Virus record (IMG/VR): IMGVR_UViG_2541047120_000012
Strand: one strand, 5' to 3'
Length of the DNA: 10,911 nt
Source of the DNA: a virus
Taxonomy: Duplodnaviria > Heunggongvirae > Uroviricota > Caudoviricetes
This document shows positions 381 to 997 of this stretch, piece after piece. A model generated the notes under the pieces. The model was not told where the DNA came from and did not search any database. It saw only the letters and a program-made list of their open reading frames with translations. Every line of letters starts with the position of its first letter. Positions within the stretch are counted from its first letter, which is position 1. A program made the translations under genes and the position numbers.

Positions 381-422
381 GTTCACAGATAAAATACTCT
401 CCAGGAAACCCGGGGCGGTTCA
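1..422 (+). mobile_element. IS3-family insertion sequence, 3' portion (OrfB C-terminus plus putative right terminal repeat ending ...GGTTCA); 5' part lies outside the window
   Basis: ORF 9..380 translates to a typical IS3-family OrfB C-terminus ([52 protein letters not shown]...WYNNRRL). The integrase reading frame on the other strand turns into non-integrase sequence at about 422, marking the IS end. Boundary estimated to within about 5 bp. Confidence 0.8.
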
Positions 423-997
423 CCCAAATCTTTATTCCGTGACTCATCACACGCAATCAGAAGGCGTTCAATCTCATCTACATACAGAAACGCCAGTTCC
501 TTTTCTTCCTCACGAAACTTGCGAATACCAGTCAGGGGGTTTTCACCAGACCACTCCCCAAGGCGCTTCAGTTCGGCAAAAACAGCATGTAGATATGACT
601 GCTCGCGATTAACGGTTGCTTCACTAAGTTTTTTCTTCCCCTTGGGATTCCATTCTCCTGATAGCCTTCTTTCCCGATAAGTAGCAAACATATTTTTGTC
701 AAACTGAGAAGCAAATGGATCTCCCAGCCTGGAACAAATCGCCTCAAGTTTGACTTTGCGCTCTGCACCAGAGGACAAGGTTTTACCGTACATCTCAAAC
801 CAACGAGCAATCAACTCAGAAAGACGAGGACCAGAACCATCTTGAAACTCGTCTCCAACTCTACTATTCATTAAACGGCGCTCATAAGAGAGCGCCTCAC
901 TTTTTGTCGCAAACTGTTTACGAATGCGTTTTCCCGATGCCCCGTAGGGATAACATTCACAAAGCCATTTACCTGATGGAATCTTACGAACCGACAT
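383..997 (-). pseudogene. int: P2-family tyrosine integrase, N-terminal about 191 residues only; catalytic domain removed by the IS3-family insertion
   Basis: Protein (MSVRKIPSGKWLCECYPYGASGKRIRKQFATKSEALSYERRL...RLSELIARWFEMYGK...NREQSYLHAVFAELKRLGEWSGENPLTGIRKFREEEKELAFLYVDEIERLLIACDESRNKDL) follows the P2 Int N-terminal/core-binding region as I recall it. The last about 13 codons (GEPPRVSWRVFYL) are read from IS sequence; no R-H-R-Y catalytic region is present. Confidence 0.75.

Follow-up and report, generated by a model that had tools for sequence, protein, structure and literature searches.

The prophage analysed here poses the question of what becomes of an element whose integrase gene runs into an insertion sequence (IS), and of whether the genes left beside such a gene have been kept for functions of their own. 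The window, by which we mean the whole stretch of 10,911 nt under analysis, is an entire draft contig assembled from short reads and has IS repeats at both of its ends. A preliminary description of it proposed that an IS3-family insertion had truncated a P2-type integrase, had replaced the attachment site beyond it, and had left behind a domesticated or stabilised element that retained selected functions. Our data agree with the first part of this proposal and not with the other two. We consider it very probable that the locus records a simple and recent IS629 insertion in codon 192 of the int gene of prophage Sp13, which split int and left attL undisturbed.

On sequence identity, the element in the window is prophage Sp13 (CP-933T of EDL933) of E. 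coli O157:H7, located between yecA and leuZ. Many E. coli O157:H7 chromosomes match positions 423-1400 with 100% identity; in them this stretch adjoins yecA and int is uninterrupted (333 aa). Across positions 423-10466 the window is identical at 10,044 of 10,044 bases to the int-intact strains TR01, 147 and others. The comparison of 423-10911 with the Sakai region annotated as 'prophage Sp13, P2-like phage' gives 99.88% identity, and a contig from another assembly (L003) is 100% identical to window positions 296-10606. The Sp13 locus is collinear among complete O157 genomes. The window resembles Sakai Sp13 in its gene order, in the IS remnant at its right-hand end and in its ParM/StbB and epsilon-like genes, and differs from it in int, which is intact in Sakai (333 aa) and in the window carries an IS629-type element in codon 192. 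Every complete O157 genome examined, Sakai included, has an intact 333-aa int, with the exception of strain 1613, where another IS insertion is present, and the intact, identical 333-aa integrase is present on at least 1000 contigs.

The truncated integrase is a 204-aa open reading frame (ORF) at 383-997 on the - strand, delimited from the ORF listing, Pfam and an alignment to the intact allele. Homology to intact int begins exactly at position 423, which puts the right junction at 422/423, and of int, nt 1-575 remain in the window, or 191 full codons and two further nucleotides. The first 192 residues of the ORF match the intact Sp13 Int exactly, after which the frame continues through 12 IS-coded residues, EPPRVSWRVFYL, to a stop, so that residues 193-204 and the stop codon derive from the IS inverted repeat. 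This agrees with the earlier placing of the break at about 422 with about 191 residues left. The exact 204-aa fusion product is deposited as GenBank ERE20004.1 (E. coli T1282_01); independent assemblies from NCBI and Logan carry it on 31 contigs.

In the 204-aa ORF, Pfam matched the Int_N domain (PF24624) at residues 58-162 (E 1.8e-32) and no catalytic domain, and the PHROGs matches were to phrog_11531 integrase (E 3.7e-63) and phrog_1 integrase. The P2-type assignment is supported by the intact Sp13 Int, which shows full-length similarity to P2 Int (38% identity, E 1e-74) and matches the solved catalytic domain of HP1 integrase (1AIH) with its residues 165-331 (E 4.6e-75). The catalytic residues of the intact allele, in which the R-H-R-Y set is conserved as in P2 Int and HP1 Int, are R204 (in ATGARWSE), H277 and R280 (in HVLRHTF) and Y312 (in MRYAH), and all of them lie beyond residue 192. 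In residues 1-192, the arm-binding N-terminus and the core-binding domain (Int_N) are followed by the first ~28 residues of the catalytic domain. The catalytic domain with its R...HxxR...Y residues is present in the intact allele of other strains and missing from the window copy, which differs from P2 Int and HP1 Int in having no residues 193-333. The statement that none of the catalytic domain is left is correct for R204, H277, R280 and Y312, all of which are lost, but it goes too far in that ~28 residues of the first helix remain, the HP1 alignment starting at residue 165. The term 'decapitated' is likewise a misnomer, as it is the C-terminal part that was cut off. On these alignments, the int of the window is a pseudogene of a member of the P2/HP1-type tyrosine integrase family.

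The inserted element occupies positions 1-422 (+ strand), which are the last 422 nt of an IS629/IS1203-type member of the IS3 family, as judged from rve domains and from identity to a complete copy. The C-terminus of its OrfB (DDE transposase) is encoded at 9-380 (+ strand; Pfam matches to rve, rve_2 and rve_3), and its right inverted repeat, at 410-422, ends in CCCGGGGCGGTTCA, the ends having been seen on the complete copy in contig L004. That copy, in O157:H7 SS NE 1040-1 (L004 2112-3421), is 1310 bp long, and its positions 890-1310 (the last 421 nt) are 100% identical to window positions 2-422; complete copies with 100% identity occur in several O157:H7 genomes. Identity of the IS part of the window to an annotated IS1203 copy is 94.8%. 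In the 1310-bp reference copy, orfA and orfB are annotated as joined by a programmed frameshift, while the copy in int is known in the window from its last 422 nt. IS629 is the main mobile IS of O157, with subtypes that are 55-60 bp apart (PMC3271280), and the two full-length copies that we compared, which are separated by 54 mismatches and 1 gap, are consistent with these published subtypes. Up to 49 matching places for this IS are found per O157 genome. The insertion in the window shares its terminal repeats (TGAACCGCCCCGG...), 3-bp target duplication and high copy number with the IS629/IS1203 polymorphisms of O157:H7, and mechanistically it does not differ from them; the target alone, codon 192 of Sp13 int, is specific. 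A literature search on IS629 with CP-933T and with T1282_01 found no published description of this insertion site.

In order to locate the part of the gene that lies beyond the IS, a simple insertion with duplication of 3 bp was modelled, the partial products of the other half were predicted from it, and these were then looked up exactly. The predicted 144-aa partial integrase beginning VQG-VVVRIG (P0153), whose V and Q are encoded by the left end of the IS, was found, and partial integrases starting at G192 (P0151) and at V193 (P0152) are present on 97 and 23 contigs, respectively. A 92-kb contig (L014, GCA_011823735.1) starts with GGTTCA, followed by GGG and then by GGTTGTTG, also given as GGTTGTTGTCC; GGTTCA corresponds to the last six bases of the left inverted repeat of the IS, and int then follows from nt 573. 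The order on this contig is the IS end, int nt 573-1002 with its stop codon, the leuZ repeat (attL), yecA, tyrP, yecH and ftnA, with 0 mismatches to O157:H7 PV15-279. A second draft contig (L015) is like it, with the IS left end, the duplication, the 3' part of int, attL, yecA and tyrP. Comparison with L014 identifies window positions 423-425 as the right-hand copy of a 3-bp target-site duplication, CCC on the + strand, which corresponds to int nt 573-575; these three nucleotides are present on both sides of the IS, since int in the window ends at nt 575 and int in L014 begins at nt 573. A 3-bp target duplication is the signature of simple IS3-family transposition, and as the 3' part of int and attL lie beyond the IS with such a duplication, the event was a simple insertion. 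The attachment site had been described as replaced by the IS; L014 and L015 show it, together with the 3' part of int, beyond the left end of the IS.

The attachment sites themselves are well defined in the int-intact strains, where attL is found 520-670 bp leftward of the insertion point, with yecA on one side and the int stop codon on the other. In TR01, attL and attR form a perfect 153-nt direct repeat (L005 13330-13482 and 35766-35918), of which 138 nt were matched in L014. The repeat holds 70 nt of the 3' end of the leuZ tRNA-Leu(UAA) gene together with downstream sequence, and at 138-153 nt this leuZ 3' segment is far longer than the 27-bp core of P2. A similarity search with the C-terminal 141 aa of Int gave matches of at most 81% identity and at most 246 aa, none of them from O157, and evidently missed the closest relatives. 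A 91-aa ORF with an internal start was also considered as a product of the split gene and was rejected, as it is found only on contigs with a frameshifted or divergent contiguous int and with no IS junction.

Both junctions were read on separate molecules, the window stopping inside the IS, and the IS-int junction occurs in no complete RefSeq E. coli genome, all of which were searched. Homologous recombination between IS copies could thus be imagined to have inverted or deleted a segment in the window strain, such that the int halves would now be far apart or one of them lost, and both the many IS629 copies of O157 (up to 49 matching places per genome) and the short-read contigs, which stop in an IS on both sides and leave the linkage unseen, would allow for this. 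We regard such a rearrangement as improbable, however, in that both junctions are found with the matching 3-bp duplication in many assemblies, complete O157 genomes are collinear here, and nothing specific points to it. The accessions of N- and C-terminal partial integrases share the numbering range of a single genome (EES9380330/EES9378390 and EET2446617/EET2444230), which indicates that both int halves are in the same assemblies, on separate contigs. From its two ends, the IS copy in the window strain appears to be full-length. In the simple-insertion model that we favour, a 1310-bp IS629-type element would have transposed into codon 192 of Sp13 int in an O157:H7 sublineage by a copy-out-paste-in mechanism, duplicating 3 bp of the target. 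The gene would thereby have been split into a 5' fragment, seen in the window as 192 Int residues with a 12-residue IS tail, and a 3' fragment that would have stayed beyond the IS, beside an undisturbed attL and yecA.

The remainder of the element has the early layout of a P2-like phage, with int and the repressor gene on one strand (-) and the genes from cox-like to gpA diverging on the other (+), and the synteny int-C-cox...A is that of P2. Upstream of int, a lysogenic operon at 1003-2450 (- strand), in the order C ... int as on the P2 gene map, encodes a DUF2511/YebY-like protein (1003-1350), an Flk_N-like membrane protein (1380-2030) and an intact HTH repressor (2046-2450), all on the - strand and assigned with Pfam and PHROGs; two of its genes, between the repressor gene and int, are extra compared with P2. 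On the + strand are an intact Cox-like excisionase/repressor gene (2749-2952; phrog_575, E 1.2e-27), a gene for an epsilon-like 'derepression' protein (5595-5825), annotated as intact in int-intact strains, an intact gpA-type replication endonuclease gene (6270-9092; PF05840, E 2.4e-131; 30% identity to P2 gpA, E 2e-79) and intact ParM (StbA) and StbB-type partition genes (9169-10447; PF06406, PF21523 and PF10784; phrog_2515). Each ORF lying between the two IS sequences has an identical counterpart in int-intact strains, annotated there as intact, and the claim that the repressor, cox-like, replication and partition genes are intact is correct.

Several further features of this region were observed in passing. 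Between the repressor and cox-like genes, an ORF of 68 aa at 2526-2732 (+ strand) encodes an Arc-like ribbon-helix-helix repressor (phrog_3431, E 4.3e-27); it is unannotated by RefSeq in TR01 and Sakai, where a 45-aa ORF on the opposite strand is listed instead. Directly upstream of the epsilon-like gene, Rfam matched isrK (63 bits) at 5341-5415 and then a C4 antisense RNA (78.5 bits) at 5451-5538, both on the + strand, and isrK, C4 and the epsilon-like gene together look like a P1/P4-type RNA-controlled antirepressor module placed in a P2-like early operon. A 205-aa ORF at 5284-5901 (the Sakai 'antirepressor protein' ECs_2630) overlaps the isrK and C4 matches as well as the epsilon-like gene and is probably spurious. 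An unannotated 357-aa ORF at 5733-6806 (- strand) runs antisense to the preceding gene and the 5' portion of gpA, and most likely arose by chance in GC-rich sequence. The plasmid-type ParM/StbB pair stands directly after gpA, where P2 has orf91, tin and old, and is widespread in related E. coli prophages; its presence suggests either plasmid-like maintenance of the ancestral phage or a locus that collects cargo genes.

At the right-hand end of the window, positions 10480-10911 (- strand) hold an older, truncated IS629-family remnant, inverted relative to the left IS, of which IS positions 1057-627 are within the window. In TR01 the full remnant spans IS positions 3-1057 (L005 24058-25112) and lacks the last 253 nt, and in the Sakai annotation it is called 'IS1203 Family: IS3 partial'. 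It is 93.5% identical to active IS copies, is common to all O157:H7 copies of Sp13, including those of Sakai, TR01 and strain 1613, and is separate from the new insertion. The remnant marks a deletion that took the P2-like late genes. A complete late gene set is absent from Sp13 of TR01 and Sakai, where only part of the tail cluster is present, with no head, lysis or baseplate genes, with a frameshifted tape-measure gene and with gpD cut by an IS30. Sp13 has been described before as having no head or lysis genes and only a partial tail cluster (PMC2669165).

With the catalytic part of int missing from the window and the other genes intact, one might suppose that the IS removed the 3' half of int and attL, locking the element in place, and that selection has since kept the repressor, replication and partition genes. 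We find this very improbable. On chromosomal contigs from assemblies that are interrupted at this position, the left end of the IS is followed by the 3-bp duplication, the 3' part of int and attL. In all O157:H7, Sp13 had been reduced to a remnant before the IS arrived, and the zero divergence from int-intact strains leaves no time for selection to show. Since no substitution is found in the 10,044 bases that follow the IS on its right, the insertion is too recent for the intactness of these genes to say anything about selection, and a domesticated element keeping selected functions is left unsupported. The simple insertion that we favour was probably a recent, neutral IS629 polymorphism rather than a selected domestication.

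Disruption of Sp13 int is not confined to codon 192. The complete genome of strain 1613 has an IS1203-type element in int ~50 nt before the stop codon (codon ~317), which is a simple and independent insertion, and in two contigs (L021, L022) an IS629-family end, CCGGGGCGGTTCA, abuts int codon 148. Contigs also break within int at codon ~154 (22 contigs) and at codon ~250 (57 contigs), and N-terminal partial proteins correspond to these breaks. Across assemblies (L002, L018-L022; proteins P0123-P0150), Sp13 int has thus received at least 3 independent IS629-family insertions (codons 148, 192 and ~317), in addition to the two contig-break alleles (~154 and ~250), and several of the disruption alleles are carried by dozens of assemblies. 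Thousands of O157 genomes have been sequenced, and because of this number and of the up to 49 IS places per genome, scattered hits are what neutral IS activity would give in a dispensable gene of 1 kb. That the recurrent loss of int is instead adaptive, by locking in or silencing the excision of a mitomycin-inducible, self-replicating and unpackageable remnant, we think unlikely. A selective advantage might also be sought in the truncated protein, which could be a functional product, for instance one that binds att arms or acts as a dominant-negative regulator, and whose production could be favoured; its native start and operon position are kept, its Int_N domain is complete, and the same gene has been disrupted independently several times. 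The breakpoints, however, are scattered (codons 148, ~154, 192, ~250 and ~317), as in random knock-outs of a dispensable gene, and we hold a function for the truncated protein to be highly improbable. That the junction is an assembly chimera of collapsed IS repeats and the real integrase intact is hardly credible even for a short contig bounded by repeats, as the exact 204-aa fusion recurs on 31 contigs of independent assemblies, the complementary contigs open at the same position with bases of the IS end, and a chimera would not produce a 3-bp duplication.

A tyrosine recombinase without its R-H-R-Y residues carries out no strand exchange. The polypeptide that remains keeps the arm-binding and core-binding domains and, without R204, H277, R280 and the nucleophile Y312, would neither cleave nor rejoin DNA. 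Because a truncated Int of this kind cannot catalyse strand exchange, Sp13 in the carrier lineage probably no longer excises or circularises by itself. We infer this loss with good reason, because Sp13 of Sakai, with an intact int, does excise, circularise and replicate, and its circular form increases ~30-fold with mitomycin C (PMC2669165). Sakai Sp13 is also packaged, at a low level (PMC2669165). The SOS-responsive early operon (cox-like, epsilon-like and gpA genes) would be unchanged although excision and circularisation are lost; induction would still switch on the cox-like and gpA genes, and replication would in that case need to begin in situ.

The mitomycin inducibility of Sp13 was flagged as unexplained by Asadulghani et al. 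(PMC2669165). A search for a LexA box that could account for it gave 4 matches compared with 3.35 expected by chance, none of them near the epsilon-like gene, and the inducibility is still unexplained because there is no LexA box nearby. The loss of excision, for its part, may be reversible. The IEE protein is described as promoting the excision of IS629 and related IS in O157, which can restore interrupted genes (PMC9943667, PMC9397093). As IEE can remove IS629 insertions in O157, the insertion in int could be reverted by IEE-promoted excision of IS629 and the 'immobilisation' of the element is perhaps not permanent.

Taken as a whole, the locus is an ordinary IS629 insertion polymorphism in a well-described defective prophage and not a new kind of system. 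A contig that ends in an IS copy hides the sequence on the far side, and when an insertion is recent, the intactness of the genes beside it does not speak for domestication. IS629 insertion-site polymorphisms are the classic origin of small structural differences between O157:H7 strains, and the present case adds another, of small importance beyond strain typing. The insertion site could serve as a lineage marker, and in the carrier sublineage Sp13 should not excise or circularise, which would be a minor change in the 'defective prophage pool'.
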